Shown here piece by piece: positions 2,173 through 17,947 of a stretch of 20,000 bases of DNA (positions within the stretch are counted from its first letter, which is position 1; every line of letters begins with the position of its first letter). The DNA lies in IMG/VR virus record IMGVR_UViG_3300008954_000034, positions 57,955-77,954 of that record, one strand, 5' to 3'. The notes below the pieces were generated by a model. That model saw only the letters and a list, made by a program, of their open reading frames with translations, did no database searches and had not been told where the DNA came from. The position numbers were made by a program, and so were the translations under genes. This DNA is from an uncultured virus (IMG/VR IMGVR_UViG_3300008954_000034) (Duplodnaviria > Heunggongvirae > Uroviricota > Caudoviricetes).

Positions 2173-2487
2173 TTACTTTGGTTCGGTCGCCTGTGTCAGG
2201 GCGGCAAGATTTACGTGATATGTCTTGGAAGTCCAAGAGTTGCCTTCGTAGTCAAGTTCAAAAACCAGCTCGGTCTCGCCCTTGGCGATCTTCTCGCCGG
2301 TGATCCGGCAGCGGGCTCGGCCAGTTGCGGTCTTTATCTCGATCAGGCTGTTCGGGTTGAACCAAGGTGTGCGGCTGATGATGGTGTCCTTATCTCCCCG
2401 CACACTGTTGCGATGGTTTTCATAAGCCTCTGCAAGTTCGTGAATCTCGTTTGCGGGCAGGGTCTTGAATTCGGTCTTGGTTTCCAT
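2173..2487 (-). CDS. Hypothetical protein with degenerate PARP-type zinc-finger-like motif
   Basis: Start reassigned to METK (SD GGAGG). TATGRARCRITGEKIAKGE...YH resembles the zf-PARP pattern AKSGRSxCxxCxxKIxKGE with some Cys missing. Confidence 0.65.
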   Translation of the reverse strand: METKTEFKTLPANEIHELAEAYENHRNSVRGDKDTIISRTPWFNPNSLIEIKTATGRARCRITGEKIAKGETELVFELDYEGNSWTSKTYHVNLAALTQATEPK

Positions 2488-2513
2488 GGGGCGTCCTCCG
2501 GGGTTGTTTACTT

Positions 2514-2582
2514 TGCACATGTACATGATAACACAAAGCGAGCCGGAAAGCAACCTCATGTACATGAGATGCTCTCCGGCTC
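2514..2582 (-). promoter_or_regulatory. Terminator/promoter cassette 2 (long-hairpin type)
   Basis: TTGCTT(2548-2553)-N17-TATCAT(2525-2530); hairpin 2540-2582 centred on CTCATGTACATGAG; second CATGTACATG overlaps the -10. Confidence 0.8.
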
Positions 2583-2596
2583 TTAAGCGAGGATAC

Positions 2597-2945
2597 TGGT
2601 GGAGACGTGGGGAATCGAACCCCAGTCCGAATGGTTTTACCAACCCCATTCTACGTGCGTAGTCTACTCAGACCGCAGACAGGTCATCACCGTGTATTTT
2701 GTGCTCCGGGACACGATAAAACCGGATCAACACAACCCAGAGGATTGAAGTGCCGACATTTGTCGACCGGAAATCCTGAGTCGCTATCGGCTTGCTACTC
2801 AGGGTCCGGGAGATGACTACTGTTTAAGCAGCCGCTCTCAAGGGAGTTTGCTCTTCAGCAATTATGGATGTTCTGCCCTCTTGCAGTTGGACAGCCACTG
2901 GCACGCATGAAATCAACTTACCACCCGTCGAAACCAATCGTCCCC
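2597..2945 (-). ncRNA. ssrA: tmRNA, 349 nt, tag (A)AEEQTPLRAAA*
   Basis: 5' GGGGACG pairs with 3' CGTCTCC-A-CCA with the G3-U alanine determinant; T-arm GGGGTTCGATTCCCC; ATAATT-GCT resume context; tag ORF at 2824-2859. Confidence 0.96.
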
Positions 2946-2947
2946 GC

Positions 2948-2959
2948 TTGTGAAAGATC
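2948..2959 (-). promoter_or_regulatory. boxA-like motif (GATCTTTCACAA) directly before the tmRNA
   Basis: Resembles rrn boxA (GCTCTTTAACA); similar motifs occur at 3612, 3912 and 4211. Confidence 0.5.
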
Positions 2960-2973
2960 AATGGTACAAACTT

Positions 2974-3474
2974 CTATTCACCGTCAGCTAGTGTACGCTG
3001 TGAATTCTTAATCACCGTCTGCACTGAATCAGCTGCGGCTGTCATTCCAGCCCGGTAGTACAAGTTACCTAAAAACCAGCGGAAGAAGTTAATGCCTTGT
3101 AACGTACCGGCAGTAGCCTCTTCCCCCTGTAAGAGCAGCTGTTCCTCCCATCTCGGAAGGATCAGCTCCATCGCAGTTACAGTCACAATAGGAGAAACTG
3201 ATCTGTGGTCGGCGAGCTGGTAATAGCAATATACAGTCACCGCTCTATCACGGAGTGCGTTGATCGACTCAGGTCCAAACAACGTGACTGCCAGCTCAGC
3301 AGCTGCACTCGAGTTAGTATAAGCAACATAAAAGTTCTCGTCAAGCGCATCGTAGTAAGCAGTCACACGTAGTGACTTATACAAGAGCTCGTCCATACTC
3401 AGTTCTTGCTCTGGTTGGCCCAGAACCATGGAAGTGAGCATTAACGATAATAGCAATGTCAAGATGTACTTCAT
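2974..3474 (-). CDS. Hypothetical exported protein (Sec signal peptide)
   Basis: N-terminus MKYILTLLLSLMLTSMVLG-Q; 166 aa; SD AGGA. Confidence 0.75.
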   Translation of the reverse strand: MKYILTLLLSLMLTSMVLGQPEQELSMDELLYKSLRVTAYYDALDENFYVAYTNSSAAAELAVTLFGPESINALRDRAVTVYCYYQLADHRSVSPIVTVTAMELILPRWEEQLLLQGEEATAGTLQGINFFRWFLGNLYYRAGMTAAADSVQTVIKNSQRTLADGE

Positions 3475-3495
3475 GGTCTTCTATCCTGTTAGACT

Positions 3496-3610
3496 GAGAC
3501 GGTGCAGCCCTATTAGCAACCAAGCACGTGGCTGGTGCAGGATGGATACTGCACCGTCTCTTAATCGAACCCGGTGCCGCGAGATTCCACCTCGTGGAAA
3601 GGTTCAATGG
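3496..3610 (-). ncRNA. Putative structured RNA D
   Basis: Perfect 12-bp inverted repeat GAGACGGTGCAG/CTGCACCGTCTC (3496-3560) with an internal hairpin; TTCCAC/GTGGAA hairpin; GGGTTCGATT T-loop-like motif. Confidence 0.45.
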
Positions 3611-3621
3611 GTTGTCAAAGT

Positions 3622-3712
3622 CTGGTGGTCGACTGGTTCTCCGGAGGAGTCGTTCCCCAGCCTCTGGAACAGAGCCGCAGCGCTCCTCACACTACGGTTG
3701 CCCCACCACCAG
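3622..3712 (-). ncRNA. Putative structured RNA C (possibly a degenerate tRNA-like element)
   Basis: Closing stem CTGGTGGT/ACCACCAG; inner GAGGAG/CTCCTC and CTCTG/CAGAG stems. Confidence 0.45.
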
Positions 3713-3716
3713 TTTG

Positions 3717-3792
3717 TCGGAGATACAGGATTCGAACCTGTGGCCCCCTGCTCCCAAAGCAGGTGCGCTCTACCGGACTGCGCCAATCTCCG
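3717..3792 (-). tRNA. tRNA-Pro(UGG), CCA not encoded
   Basis: Full cloverleaf: CGGAGAT/ATCTCCG acceptor, GCGC D-stem, CCTGC-TTTGGGA-GCAGG anticodon arm, ACAGG-TTCGAAT-CCTGT T-arm. Confidence 0.96.
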
Positions 3793-3794
3793 AT

Positions 3795-3904
3795 GAGGAG
3801 TCACCACTTGCCCCGTTGCCCGCGTTCGCGGTTCAGCCGCTCTGTCGCCTTAATCCCCGTTTCCGGTTGAGGCCGAGAGCCAACGTTGGGTTCGTGACAA
3901 CCCC
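3795..3904 (-). ncRNA. Putative structured RNA B (~110 nt)
   Basis: Nested stems GTCAC/GTGAC, CGTTG/CAACG, GCTCT/AGAGC; CCG-GAAA-CGG tetraloop; CCGC-GAAC-GCGG side hairpin. Confidence 0.55.
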
Positions 3905-3921
3905 TGTCTGATTGTCAAAGT

Positions 3922-4212
3922 AACCTGCTGATAATACTACCTACACCCCACATTACACCAATGCTGCGGGGAGGCCAGTACCGGTTACCAACCACCGCGC
4001 ACTACAAAGGTTCATCTGACAGCCATCGACGCAGATGTTAGCGTCAGAATGGGTCACCCACTCCCACATTCCTCAATAGTATCCAACCGTAGTCAGCGCC
4101 AGAAAAGGAAAGTGTTAGTCTCCAGTTCTATTGATCTACGATCTGAGGTAGCAAGGACTCCACATCGTTCCACAGAACTTCGGACGGTCCTTGGTCTCGT
4201 ATTCAGCAGGTT
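3922..4212 (-). ncRNA. Putative large structured RNA A (~290 nt)
   Basis: Termini pair AACCTGCTGA-ATAC / GTAT-TA-TCAGCAGGTT; several internal stems; no credible ORF. Confidence 0.6.
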
Positions 4213-4222
4213 GTCAAAGAAC
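4211..4222 (-). promoter_or_regulatory. boxA-like antitermination motif GTTCTTTGACAA
   Basis: Close match to rrn boxA; follows a promoter and a leader hairpin (GAGCGAG/CTCGCTC, 4272-4297). Confidence 0.6.
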
Positions 4223-4304
4223 GTTCCCGCTACTTGGTCCATCCACACGAGCGGTCAGCGTGGTTGTCGATGAGCGAGGCTATGCCATGGCTCGCTCTGG
4301 TACT

Positions 4305-4333
4305 AATATACGTTCAACCGGGCTACGCAGCAA
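4305..4333 (-). promoter_or_regulatory. Sigma70-type promoter of the RNA cluster
   Basis: TTGCTG(4328-4333)-N17-TATATT(4305-4310). Confidence 0.55.
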
Positions 4334-4850
4334 CTGCCGCCCGGACCCTCTTCATCTCATCCTGCAACCACTCAAACTTGAGCTGTTCGAATGCTCGAAA
4401 GGCTGGAATGCACTCCGGGCCGCCGTTCCACAAGTCCGGATGATCTCGAATGGTAAGCTGGGTCGCGGTACTGCGGACCAAGTCATCCACGTGATCGAGA
4501 TGGTTGATCTCGCGGCACGCCTCGTAAAGCTCAATGGCGCTGCTGTAAATCCGCAGTCCAAGCAGGTGGCTCTTGGCAGCGTACGCTGCGGCCTTCTTAT
4601 CCTCGTGCCCGCTGCTGCAAATGCAAGGATAAAGACACTCTGGATCGTCCGTGTGAATCAGGAAATACCCCCAGCCATTGCGCGGGTCGCGGAAGACGAC
4701 CGCTGTCTGCTTGTCGCTGGTGATGTACATCGGGGCGTAGCTGCCACCAAGCATCTTCTGAATCTTGTGCCCGGCGTCTTGCTTGGCTGCGGTCACGTTG
4801 CGACCCTCGCCCTCAACACCGTAGTACTCGACCTTGACCTTGGTACTCAT
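4323..4850 (-). CDS. Hypothetical protein
   Basis: SD GGAGG; downstream of cassette 3; C-terminus ...QLKFEW...RAAVAA. Confidence 0.85.
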   Translation of the reverse strand: MSTKVKVEYYGVEGEGRNVTAAKQDAGHKIQKMLGGSYAPMYITSDKQTAVVFRDPRNGWGYFLIHTDDPECLYPCICSSGHEDKKAAAYAAKSHLLGLRIYSSAIELYEACREINHLDHVDDLVRSTATQLTIRDHPDLWNGGPECIPAFRAFEQLKFEWLQDEMKRVRAAVAA

Positions 4851-4874: not shown

Positions 4875-4929
4875 TGCACATCTACATGATAAGAAAAGCC
4901 CCTGCTGGATGCAAGCTCCAACAGAGGCT
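4875..4929 (-). promoter_or_regulatory. Terminator/promoter cassette 3
   Basis: TTGCAT(4909-4914)-N17-TATCAT(4886-4891); 13-bp stem AGCCTCTGTTGGA/TCCAGCAGGGGCT with two G-U pairs. Confidence 0.85.
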
Positions 4930-5288: not shown

Positions 5289-5340
5289 TGCACATGTACA
5301 TGATAACAAAACCCCCTATAGGATGCAAGTCCTATAGAGG
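5289..5340 (-). promoter_or_regulatory. Terminator/promoter cassette 4
   Basis: TTGCAT(5323-5328)-N17-TATCAT(5300-5305); stem CCTCTATAGGA/TCCTATAGGGG. Confidence 0.85.
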
Positions 5341-6470: not shown

Positions 6471-6523
6471 TGCACATGTACATGATAAGAAAAACCTCTA
6501 TAGGATGCAAGTCCTATAGAGGT
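6471..6523 (-). promoter_or_regulatory. Terminator/promoter cassette 5
   Basis: TTGCAT(6505-6510)-N17-TATCAT(6482-6487); perfect 12-bp stem ACCTCTATAGGA/TCCTATAGAGGT followed by TTTT. Confidence 0.85.
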
Positions 6524-7855: not shown

Positions 7856-7920
7856 CACATGTACATGATAACACTCCAGCGAGCCAAAAACAACTCATGT
7901 ACAAGAGTTGCTCTTAGCTC
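7856..7920 (-). promoter_or_regulatory. Terminator/promoter cassette 6 (long-hairpin type)
   Basis: TTGTTT(7888-7893)-N17-TATCAT(7865-7870); 16-bp stem with three G-U pairs centred on TGTACA. Confidence 0.8.
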
Positions 7921-8155: not shown

Positions 8156-9046
8156 TCATCCCTCAAGGTCAAGTGCTATCTTCCGCAGCTTAGCGCGGTG
8201 CTTGTGCTCGATATCCTGAGCCTTCTCGAACAGACTCTGGTCCATGTGGTTGGTGACCGTCCCTTGAATCAGGTCGATAAGCACAGTTGGGTTGAGTGCG
8301 TCCAGCTCCCATGAACTGTATCCATACTCTTCAACGTACCCATCCGCCCGGGAGTCAGAAAGTTTTGTTGGGTTTGGCGGTGGCTGGTACTCCTCCACCT
8401 GATCATAGTTCAGCGCGATGCGATCAACCTTCAGTGCTGGAAATCCGTGCGTGGTAAGAAAGGTGTCCATGCGCTTTACGATGTCACGGGTCATGTCCAT
8501 ACCGCTGGGGTCATGGTCGCCGAGATGGATAATAACCGGTTTGCGATTTGCGGCCCGTTCCATGATCCGACGAGCTGCCACCCACATCTCGGACAGCGAA
8601 ACGTAGCCCCGGCAAGAGAACCAAGTGACGTCCAAGGGCTTGCACGCGGCCTCAAGGATACCAGCCAGCGCTTCCTTCTCAATCCAAACCTCGACGTAGA
8701 AGGGCTGGTCGGCCCACTTATCGATGGCGAATTGATCCGCACACGCCCTGACAATTGACGCCGGTCCGGACCAGTGGCTGTTCTCTTCCTTCTTCCGGGT
8801 GCGGTCTTCGATGGCTTCCCAGTCAATGAGCCCAGCCAGCCGTGCATCTGCGACGACCTTGCCCAACTTCTTGTACTCACGATGGGTGTTCGGAATCAGG
8901 TCTCGTGCCACGAACTGGTAGTAAAGCTGCCTGAGTGTGAGCTTGAGATCGTCTGCCAGATACTCATCGATGATGGTATTTGCGTGCTCAATCAACTGCA
9001 CGGACTTGGTAGTGAACCTTTTAGGCACATAATCAATCTTTGGCAT
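8156..9046 (-). CDS. Spo11/TopoVI-A-like protein (wHTH tyrosine domain plus TOPRIM)
   Basis: TLRQLYY motif, VEVWIEKEAL (TOPRIM Glu), HLGDHDPSG (DxD), WELDAL. Start reassigned to MPKIDY (SD GAGG). Confidence 0.75.
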   Translation of the reverse strand: MPKIDYVPKRFTTKSVQLIEHANTIIDEYLADDLKLTLRQLYYQFVARDLIPNTHREYKKLGKVVADARLAGLIDWEAIEDRTRKKEENSHWSGPASIVRACADQFAIDKWADQPFYVEVWIEKEALAGILEAACKPLDVTWFSCRGYVSLSEMWVAARRIMERAANRKPVIIHLGDHDPSGMDMTRDIVKRMDTFLTTHGFPALKVDRIALNYDQVEEYQPPPNPTKLSDSRADGYVEEYGYSSWELDALNPTVLIDLIQGTVTNHMDQSLFEKAQDIEHKHRAKLRKIALDLEG

Positions 9047-9521
9047 TGTCGTCCTCACGTGGTTCGAGCTTGTTGACCTGCTCAATGATTGCCGCTGCTA
9101 CTTCCGGAGTTCCCCGCTTGCTGGGAATGTGAACGGTCATACAATCTGGCCCACACATGTCAACGATGCAGCCCTCGTCCTCCAGCATCTTGACCGTGGT
9201 CGCGTTAAGCTGTGTCATCATCTTCGCAGCCGCGTCTGCCTGCCTGATATAGTGATCGGTTGCTTGCTGTGGAATCTCGTGTGGAATGGTAATCGACCGA
9301 AATCCGATGTCCACCGATGGGTCGTCAATCATGAACCAGATATTGAGATCGTCATCGATCAACTTGAAGGCTATCTGCAGGCTCAGCAGCGCCTTGACCG
9401 CATGGTCCTCGCTATCGAAGTAGAACGGGCCGTCAAGGGTCCGACCTAACTCTGTGTCTGGCAGCGGGTCGTTGGTAATGAACCCGTCGAATACGATTCT
9501 GTCAATCTTCAGTTCTGGCAT
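9033..9521 (-). CDS. Hypothetical protein
   Basis: Start reassigned to MPELKID (SD GAGG); overlaps the downstream gene. Confidence 0.75.
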   Translation of the reverse strand: MPELKIDRIVFDGFITNDPLPDTELGRTLDGPFYFDSEDHAVKALLSLQIAFKLIDDDLNIWFMIDDPSVDIGFRSITIPHEIPQQATDHYIRQADAAAKMMTQLNATTVKMLEDEGCIVDMCGPDCMTVHIPSKRGTPEVAAAIIEQVNKLEPREDDNAKD

Positions 9522-9525
9522 TGTA

Positions 9526-9882
9526 TCAATCCTCATCTGAAAACTTGTCAACAAACCCACGTAGAACGTCAATGGTTACTAGAATACCTCGATTCTTGTT
9601 TTCAACGAACTCCAAGGTGTCCTCTGCGTCCTGCTTGCTTGTCATCTGGTAAAAGCCATCGTTGCCCGACCCAATGGGAAGACCGTGCAGTCTAAGCTGC
9701 TTCACAACGTCACTTATCTTGCGCTGGACGGTACCGAGGTCTTTCTCCATCTTGCCCGACGCGGTTACCGGGTTATCTCGCGTGCGTCTCCAGACCCGCT
9801 TAAGAACCGCCTGCCCAAAGGAAGAGATACATAAGTACTTCCCTTCTTTGAGGGTGAAGATGTTGTCATTCGATGTCGTCAC
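9526..9882 (-). CDS. Winged-HTH DNA-binding protein (HTH_11/BirA-N-like)
   Basis: RKISDVVKQLRLHGLPIGSGNDGFY motif. Confidence 0.65.
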   Translation of the reverse strand: MTTSNDNIFTLKEGKYLCISSFGQAVLKRVWRRTRDNPVTASGKMEKDLGTVQRKISDVVKQLRLHGLPIGSGNDGFYQMTSKQDAEDTLEFVENKNRGILVTIDVLRGFVDKFSDED

Positions 9883-15959: not shown

Positions 15960-17603
<1,644 letters not shown>

Positions 17604-17647
17604 CCTTCCTAACTCCTGAGTAATATCACATGAAGTACAACTTAGAC

Positions 17648-17947
17648 TTACTTCTCGATCACACCGAGAATGTCAGTGCGGTTGACCAACAGATACTTCT
17701 TGTTGTCGATGTCGACTTCCGTTCCGCCGTACTTCGCGAACAGAATCTGATCACCAACATTGACGATCTGTGACAACGGTTTACGGTTCTCACGCGTGTC
17801 AGTAATGTCGTCACCAACGGCGACTACCTCACCGATCTGAGGTTGTTCCTTGGAAACCGTGTCTGGGATGATAATCCCACCGCTGGTTTTCTCGTCCTTC
17901 TCTACTACGGTGAGAAGAACACGTTCATCAATCGGACGTACGTTCAT
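17648..17947 (-). CDS. groES: Co-chaperonin GroES
   Basis: [42 protein letters not shown]. Confidence 0.97.

Follow-up and report, generated by a model that had tools for sequence, protein, structure and literature searches.

A putative phage stable-RNA operon with an rrn-type boxA leader, tRNA-Pro, tmRNA and unassigned structured RNAs

The final 20 kb of the 77,954-nucleotide (nt) virus record IMGVR_UViG_3300008954_000034 in IMG/VR (an uncultured member of the Caudoviricetes; positions 57,955 to 77,954 of the record, 20,000 nt in all, hereafter the window) contain on their minus strand a 1.75-kb stretch which looks like a single transcription unit, made up mainly of folded untranslated RNAs together with a tRNA and a transfer-messenger RNA (tmRNA). 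An original prediction, made by a model from the letters alone, had described this stretch as resembling a ribosomal RNA (rrn) operon, in that its RNAs appeared to be punctuated by copies of boxA, the site at which Nus antitermination factors are recruited in such operons. Every element that it listed was found on the minus strand where it had been placed. In the direction of transcription the features are as follows, where the folded RNAs are given with their minimum free energy (MFE), the z-score of that energy and the number of shuffled sequences folding as well.

4305..4333, minus: putative promoter as read from the sequence, TTGCTG (4333-4328), 17-nt spacer, TATATT (4310-4305)
4272..4297, minus: leader hairpin at the position of a boxB, 7-bp stem (4297-4291 with 4278-4272), 12-nt loop
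4211..4222, minus: boxA1, GTTCTTTGACAA
3921..4212, minus: RNA A, 292 nt (MFE -109 kcal/mol, z -3.52, 0 of 200 shuffles as good)
3927..4094, no strand: part of RNA A (its positions 119-286) found in one 168-nt contig of metatranscriptome run X4, depth 6, 100% identical
3912..3920, minus: motif copy 2, CTTTGACAA, 5' context GGTTA, beginning one base past the 3' arm of the RNA A helix
3793..3911, minus: RNA B, 119 nt, 12-bp closing stem ending 3 nt before the tRNA (MFE -45.1, z -2.20, 4 of 200 shuffles as good)
3716..3792, minus: tRNA-Pro (UGG), without encoded CCA (Rfam RF00005, 65.4 bits against a cut-off of 29; ARAGORN)
3621..3715, minus: RNA C, 95-nt branched hairpin closed by CTGGTGGT and ACCACCAG (MFE -44.7, z -3.08, 1 of 200 shuffles as good)
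3612..3620, minus: motif copy 3, CTTTGACAA, 5' context CCAGA, beginning one base past the 3' arm of RNA C
3475..3611, minus: RNA D, or the 5' untranslated region (UTR) of the next gene, 137 nt, two hairpins (MFE -55, z -4.34, 0 of 200 shuffles as good)
2974..3474, minus: coding sequence (CDS) of 166 amino acids (aa), orphan, signal-peptide-like N-terminus MKYILTLLLSLMLTSMVLG... (coding score +0.22 per codon)
2948..2959, minus: boxA4, GATCTTTCACAA, ending 2 nt before the 5' end of the tmRNA
2597..2945, minus: one-piece tmRNA with encoded CCA and G3:U70 (Rfam RF00023, 122.2 bits against a cut-off of 47; ARAGORN)
2540..2582, minus: terminator hairpin of the unit, 13 bp (2582-2570 with 2552-2540, 92% complementary)

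Roughly 840 nt of this region are non-coding. Using codon-usage log-odds trained on 41 long open reading frames (ORFs) of the phage, all ORFs in 3475-4320 score negatively (-0.04 to -0.30 per codon), as against +0.22 to +0.46 per codon for the neighbouring genes, which bears out both the prediction that no credible CDS lies in 3480-4320 and the wider description of the unit as non-coding apart from one CDS. That one CDS, at 3474-2974, compares with -0.8 per codon in its shifted frames. What the non-coding part does carry is structure: taken as a whole, 4300-3475 (826 nt) has a folding z-score of -4.2 (20 shuffles), and on folding each of the modules A to D is closed by a terminal helix of its own.

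The beginning of the unit has, as read from its sequence, the make-up of an rrn-type leader, in which a hairpin is followed by an exact boxA and then, immediately abutting it, by the 5' arm of a long-range helix; a second good boxA site appears to stand before the tmRNA. The helix in question closes RNA A and consists of 10 perfect base pairs (4212-4203 with 3931-3922), a 2-nt bulge and 4 further base pairs (4202-4199 with 3937-3934). Its arms AACCTGCTGA (4212-4203) and TCAGCAGGTT (3931-3922) are perfectly complementary, the former overlapping the last 2 nt of boxA1 and the latter ending 1 nt before motif copy 2. Random pairs of 20-mers drawn from these 2 kb at distances of 250-300 nt reach 10 bp or more in 37 of 20,000 cases, the real helix being counted among them.

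The identity of boxA1 with bacterial boxA is exact. A search for GTTCTTTGACAA in a sample of 151 genomes, all of one bacterial phylum, gave one or more matches in 53 of them, and in five of the ten loci examined the 12 letters stand, 12 of 12 identical and on the same strand, 168-283 nt upstream of a 16S rRNA gene. Near the other five no rRNA lies closer than 1.5 kb, and these matches are probably due to chance. Two of the operons led by GTTCTTTGACAA run 16S, tRNA-Ile and tRNA-Ala, with tRNA-Met ca 3.4-3.9 kb further on. In PMC5725501 the gammaproteobacterial boxA consensus is given as GYTCTTTAANA, to which boxA1 conforms at 10 of 11 positions. The position of boxA1, after a putative promoter and hairpin and before a stable RNA with its long-range helix, also fits the rrn type, and as far as sequence and position go, copy 1 is to be called a boxA. 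The same leader holds a further look-alike, CGCTCATCGACAACC (4262-4276, minus strand), just after the hairpin, with 12 of 15 letters identical to the boxA1 region CGTTCTTTGACAACC; from its sequence it could be a decayed second boxA, placed as the E. coli rrn boxA is, right behind boxB.

Within boxA1 lies the motif CTTTGACAA, the exact copies of which in the region number three, starting at 4219, 3920 and 3620 on the minus strand, such that the predicted spacing of 299 and 300 nt holds good; a one-mismatch variant, CTTTCACAA, lies at 2956-2948 within boxA4. With up to one mismatch allowed, the window contains 13 matches where 5.3 are expected, a number reached by none of 200 shuffles, and the recurrence of the motif is beyond chance. 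The phage is also represented in IMG/VR by a sister record of 127,741 nt, 100% identical across the region, which overlaps the first around the window to give a combined length of ca 173 kb. On both strands taken together each of the two records has five exact copies, and the two that lie outside the region are antisense, inside minus-strand CDSs, so that on the transcribed strand the motif is exclusive to the locus within ca 173 kb. A longer word, CTTTGACAACCCAT (14 nt), is common to copy 3 (3620-3607) and to record position 57075, 879 nt before the start of the window. There it stands on the opposite strand inside a CDS (56711-57235), and while its 5 extra identical bases are unexpected, the sharing is probably chance.

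The four sites are not equal. As determined by crystal structure, NusB-NusE recognise nucleotides 1-8 of boxA, that is, to the last U of the U-run, later nucleotides being probably irrelevant (PMC3177189). Copy 1 (CGUUCUUU followed by GACAA) and copy 4 (UGAUCUUU followed by CACAA) have good boxA octamers in this sense. According to PMC13753749, the rrn boxA consensus is AUGAUCUUUGAAA in B. subtilis as against UGCUCUUUAACA in E. coli, and the octamer of boxA4, its preceding T included, equals that of the B. subtilis form. The same paper has boxA as sufficient to nucleate the rrn complex and as present before both 16S and 23S. The element that all phage copies have in common is the 3' part, CUUUGACAA; the NusB-contacted nucleotides 1-8 are not found at every proposed site, copies 2 and 3 being the ones that lack them. 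The description 'boxA-punctuated' is thus not borne out as worded: the exact rrn-leader boxA of copy 1 and the good 5' half of copy 4 stand, while copies 2 and 3 are without the half that NusB contacts; since these two share the 3' part only, a boxA before every RNA is no more than half supported. Lying single-stranded between closed modules, copies 2 and 3 form linkers, which may be weak boxA sites or cleavage sites; that they are working boxA sites is a tentative idea which their sequence does more to discourage than to commend.

In two of the bacterial loci with GTTCTTTGACAA as leader boxA, degenerate look-alikes occur between tRNA-Ala and 23S (GTTCTGTTTGACATCG at ca 2590-2610 of locus L423 and AAAATGACATCG at ca 2360-2375 of locus L424), both keeping TGACAT. 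These internal look-alikes mirror the internal copies of the phage, which would mean, as judged from sequence, that weak internal sites are not unheard of.

With respect to their identity, the RNAs proved as unassignable as had been predicted. A search of Rfam 15 with the laxest filters, in which the halves were also queried alone at an E-value limit of 10, left 3915-4305 without any match and gave for 3470-3925 nothing beyond the tRNA and a chance match of 12.7 bits. The large phage RNA families GOLLD and ROOL were among those searched, and at this limit neither matched RNAs A-D. With its threshold set at 80%, ARAGORN offered a single further call, an implausible one of 95 nt that takes in C, motif copy 3 and D. 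Taken together, the absence of Rfam and ARAGORN matches excludes known families and decayed tRNAs for A to D; as RNA families of their own, the four are candidates only. RNA D was separately compared with the tmRNA as a possible decayed copy and rejected, the best local alignment scoring 22, a value equalled by 16 of 200 shuffles. Similarly rejected was the idea that A, B-tRNA-C and D are recent tandem duplicates, their local alignments beyond the motif being no better than those of shuffles. The second hairpin of RNA D has a perfect 12-bp stem (3560-3549 with 3507-3496).

Evidence of expression comes from run X4, a metatranscriptome from the same study as the DNA runs, which amounts to 21 million letters of contigs and contains 9% of the sampled words. 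The RNA A contig listed above is its one hit, and the rest of 2400-4500 (tmRNA, tRNA and CDSs, both flanking ones included) has no contig, although in so small a run absence is uninformative. A single patch inside the stem-closed RNA A, with none on the flanking CDSs, is what is expected of an accumulating stable RNA, and supports such a reading weakly to moderately, for RNA A alone. RNA A is the species most likely to accumulate, and a candidate abundant phage RNA.

The boundaries of the unit are drawn from its surroundings. At the 5' side the promoter overlaps the stop codon (4325-4323) of the upstream CDS 4850-4323, and its -35 is similar to TTGC(A/T)T, the form which this hexamer takes in promoter cassettes repeated elsewhere in the phage. 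Since no terminator separates that CDS from the RNA region, read-through from the promoter of the upstream gene would be an equally possible source of the transcript. At the 3' side, the predicted terminator cassette is indeed there: the 13-bp hairpin is followed by GCTTTGTGTT and by the promoter of the next gene, the -35 of which (TTGCTT) lies within the 3' side of the hairpin itself, with the -10, TATCAT, at ca 2530-2525. This arrangement recurs in five other gene gaps, making six cassettes in total, each with a GC-rich hairpin and T-run, a -35 (TTGCAT, TTGACC or TTGCTT) in the loop, on the 3' side or adjacent, then 17 nt, TATCAT, the near-palindromic GTACATGTGCA, a GGAGG ribosome-binding site and a start codon. 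The six copies of its core TATCATGTNSATGT lie on the minus strand at 2101-2114, 2517-2530, 4878-4891, 5292-5305, 6474-6487 and 7857-7870 of the window. Each small gene within 2.1-7.9 kb thus forms a promoter-to-terminator unit by itself. Between 4305 and 2582, on the other hand, there is none of the six cassettes and the terminator scan found no convincing terminator, which makes a single unit ending at 2582-2540 plausible. Searches of IMG/VR and metagenome contigs with the cassette words returned none with more than one occurrence outside this phage.

A leader-trailer pairing of the whole unit can also be drawn on the minus strand, in which CAGAGCGAGCC (4299-4289, the 5' arm of the leader hairpin) meets GGCTCGCTTTG (2544-2534, the 3' foot of the terminator, 1.75 kb downstream) in 11 bp including one G-U. 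Such a pairing can be expected by chance alone in a stretch of 2 kb, and each of its arms is also part of a local hairpin.

ARAGORN and Rfam agree with the prediction in respect of tRNA-Pro and tmRNA. The former is the only tRNA across both phage records; the latter matches the full RF00023 model (1-374) and has the tag AEEQTPLRAAA, its acceptor pairing being read from the sequence. The embedded protein has as its sole match among 5.8 billion proteins itself (188 candidates scored), the database copy having 151 aa and covering 91% of the 166-aa ORF. It may be tetratricopeptide-repeat-like, as judged from ESM Atlas features (0.94, 174 shared) and structural TM scores of 0.61-0.72, which we treat as a lead only; AlphaFold run without an alignment gave a mean pLDDT of 48, too poor for a fold search. 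Elsewhere in IMG/VR, contig L186 has at 9312-9850 a permuted, two-piece-type tmRNA (tag VNDNDMFEDVRLAA) with a tRNA-Pro (UGG) 86 nt later, just upstream of a 44%-identical homologue of the topoisomerase-like window gene at 8156-9085. The pair of RNA genes is the same as in the window, but there is no sequence similarity and no CTTTGACAA-type motif.

That the stretch is of phage origin, as predicted, is clear from the virus record and from what else the window encodes, namely GroEL, GroES, a macro domain, a nucleoside deoxyribosyltransferase-like protein and a member of the PHROG 'DNA topoisomerase' family. GroEL is full length (547 aa, Cpn60 E 1.5e-69) and is encoded with GroES (99 aa) at 15960-17947; all convincing genes of the window are on the minus strand. 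The 127,741-nt record has a CheckV completeness of 69%. Three marine metagenome DNA runs of one study contain the stretch, with no variant letters, and are probably where it came from. A NusB gene was found in neither of the two phage records, nor was an SmpB gene, so that host factors would be needed both for antitermination and for trans-translation.

Relatives of the phage were sought widely. In GenBank phages, blastn found 126 records matching the tRNA-Pro part only (4% of the query) and none covering 80% or more. The collection of homologues from IMG/VR, which the original prediction had proposed, yielded only the same phage and matches to the tRNA part. In particular, the two flanking proteins found only the same phage, at 100% identity, and a two-copy motif pattern with at least 118 loci gave, beyond the same phage (L001, L002, L083), only a 63-nt tRNA match (L057) among the 120 loci compared. 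Around topoisomerase-like relatives (38-57% identity), 80 loci show no similarity to the region, and 79 loci around GroEL relatives match at the tRNA part only. A degenerate tmRNA-tag pattern found only itself in IMG/VR and nothing in 185,579 species genomes, while searches of IMG/VR and metagenome contigs with the phage promoter 16-mer and 18-mer turned up no more than isolated chance matches. In the collections searched the phage is thus without a relative.

As regards the host, the best among the bacterial matches listed for GroEL are 57-68% identical and come mostly from Bacteroidota, Ignavibacteria and allies; in five genomes suggested by these matches TTCTTTGACAA is not enriched (26 matches against 74 for the reversed control). 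The order 16S, tRNA-Ile, tRNA-Ala, tRNA-Met, as in the two operons described above, is typical of alphaproteobacteria. Alphaproteobacteria, however, are known to have two-piece tmRNAs, unlike the one-piece tmRNA of the phage.

Taking these parts together (their order, their propensity to fold, the lack of a coding signal and the identity of boxA1 with a bacterial rrn-leader boxA), the stretch is probably a real phage stable-RNA operon that uses host Nus factors. More specifically, our reading of the sequence inclines, by a modest degree, to one stable-RNA transcription unit led by a boxA1 onto which host Nus factors are loaded. In rrn operons the antitermination complex is formed by NusB, S10, NusA, NusG, SuhB and S4, acting together with a boxB hairpin, boxA and a leader-trailer helix. 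By analogy, transcription of the phage unit would start at the promoter 4333-4305, or arrive by read-through from the upstream gene, and end at the terminator 2582-2540, producing in order the leader hairpin, boxA1, RNA A, RNA B, tRNA-Pro, RNA C, RNA D or 5' UTR, the message for a small secreted protein, boxA4 and the tmRNA. Host NusB/S10 would load on boxA1 and, with NusA, NusG and partners, would turn RNA polymerase into a Rho-resistant, RNA-chaperoning form over the ca 840 nt of untranslated RNA. With boxA tethered, the 5' arm of the helix of RNA A could then be held close to the exit channel while the polymerase covers the 271 nt to the 3' arm, allowing the helix to close in leader-trailer style. 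The release of A, B, tRNA-Pro, C and tmRNA would fall to RNases specific for double and for single strands, to RNase P and to 3' trimming, whilst the CDS would be translated from the segment led by D. Beyond the translated CDS, boxA4 may reload the complex, or keep it, across the untranslated tmRNA.

Several observations weigh against this reading. With regard to the sites, copies 2 (GUUACUUU followed by GACAA) and 3 (CAGACUUU followed by GACAA) have no boxA 5' half, keeping only CUUU of it; the invariant CUUUGACAA is mostly outside the NusB-contacted part; and the equal spacing of 299 and 300 nt is not explained by the model we favour. With regard to expression, the RNA evidence is one contig from one small run of a study that probably also supplied the DNA, the contig shows neither strand nor ends, DNA carry-over is a possibility, and the tmRNA, a usually abundant RNA, has no contig there. 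The putative promoter is sub-threshold in the promoter scan, its first hexamer matching at 3 of 6 positions. As the collections searched hold no homologue, they offer no evidence from covariation or conservation for A to D and their helices. The group suggested by GroEL has an rrn boxA that ends differently: of three Bacteroidota rrn operons, all with near variants, two have GTTCTTTGACAT ahead of 23S and one has GTTCTTTGAAAT in its leader. Moreover, strong GGAGG sites and sigma-70-like promoters, as this phage has, are untypical of the Bacteroidota-like group, and argue against it as the host.

Among the alternatives, that which survives best, though we regard it as unlikely, is that the CTTTGACAA repeats are single-stranded linkers for cleavage or recognition by an endoribonuclease of host or phage, by which the polycistronic precursor would be cut between its closed modules, the likeness of copy 1 to boxA being coincidental or secondary. 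Each copy is indeed flanked by two closing stems, by the 3' arm of the one before it and the 5' arm of the one after it, copy 4 is only 2 nt from the 5' end of the tmRNA, where processing must occur, and the loose preference of RNase E fits the ACUUU of copies 2 and 3. The part of the motif that is invariant, CUUUGACAA, is furthermore not the octamer which NusB contacts (PMC3177189). Against this, copy 1 is an exact 12-mer of rrn-leader boxA standing behind a promoter and hairpin, which is unlikely to be an accident, and no RNase is recognisable among the proteins encoded in the window. We know of no nuclease with specificity for CTTTGACAA.

A second alternative, to which we give somewhat less credence still, is that A to D are not separate RNAs at all, and that the 840 nt are a structured leader and spacer for the expression, stability and processing of tRNA, CDS and tmRNA. 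RNA D, lying directly before the start of the CDS, serves in part at least as its 5' UTR; structured spacers of balanced GC content often have negative z-scores; and the lack of any homologue means that none of the four is backed by conservation. A spacer of 840 nt is, however, large for a gene-dense region in which other gaps are ca 100 nt, each module has its own terminal helix, and it was RNA A alone, not tRNA, tmRNA or CDS, that was recovered in the RNA library. The weakest alternative, that the motif acts on DNA, either as the -35 of three internal promoters or as a regulator site every 300 bp, has in its favour that CTTTGACAA includes the sigma-70 -35 consensus TTGACA and that copies set at even intervals of 299/300 bp are more readily imagined as an array on DNA, yet it is very improbable, since as promoters the copies were rejected for want of a -10 element (16-18 nt downstream stand ACGAAC, ACGAGG and CCAAGG), the promoter scan finds no promoter at them, the phage's own promoters differ (TTGC(A/T)T or TTGACC, 17 nt, TATCAT-GTACATGTG), and the three copies of the locus are on the transcribed strand only.

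How, then, does the proposed boxA-led operon compare with known systems? Phage tmRNAs and tRNAs are well known in large phages. GOLLD (RF01998) and ROOL (RF03087) are large ornate RNAs of phages and prophages that adjoin tRNAs. These two resemble the present RNAs in being non-coding, structured and situated beside tRNA genes, but the RNAs here are much smaller and modular and lack an Rfam match at E up to 10. The tRNA cluster of phage T4 consists of eight tRNAs, without a tmRNA, and two small stable RNAs of unexplained function, matured by host RNases from a polycistronic precursor. The likeness is of a large phage of lytic type making tRNA and unexplained stable RNAs from one precursor, and the difference lies in T4 having eight tRNAs and no tmRNA; to our knowledge no boxA or enclosing helices have been described for it.

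Antitermination by boxA and Nus factors is textbook knowledge for rRNA operons and the nut sites of lambdoid phages, to which CRISPR arrays and suhB have more recently been added. A literature search, covering few subscription journals and no supplements, did not find boxA heading phage operons of tRNA, tmRNA or non-coding RNA. Closest in this respect are the boxA-led CRISPR arrays and suhB leaders, in which, according to PMC5725501 and PMC13753749, boxA similarly heads a long untranslated transcript that would otherwise be terminated by Rho. Those cases are cellular, whereas the phage element is viral, repeated and coupled to closing helices.

The nearest relation is the rrn leader and spacer, although the unit is not an rRNA operon. 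Both there and here a promoter, a hairpin and a boxA are followed at once by the 5' arm of a long-range helix enclosing a stable RNA, a further boxA-like site stands deeper in the unit, a tRNA lies inside, and boxA1 is letter-identical to the boxA of some bacterial leaders. The phage unit differs in that the RNAs it encloses are not rRNA and are of 95-292 nt, the closing helix has 14 bp, a protein gene is included, and of the four sites two are reduced to the 3' half of boxA. The significance of the locus is thus that of a viral unit without rRNA in which an exact rrn boxA stands directly against a helix enclosing an unfamiliar RNA, suggesting that what phages take from the Nus complex is its part in co-transcriptional folding as well as in antitermination. 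A bolder proposal, which we consider doubtful but worth stating, is that large phages have copied the whole production line of the rRNA operon, in other words both the boxA-loaded, Rho-proof polymerase and the boxA-adjacent helix that joins end to end, for small stable RNAs of their own. Were that so, RNA A would represent a new and phage-specific class of abundant RNA, one that ocean RNA surveys can pick up and that acts on the host during infection alongside the phage tmRNA and tRNA.

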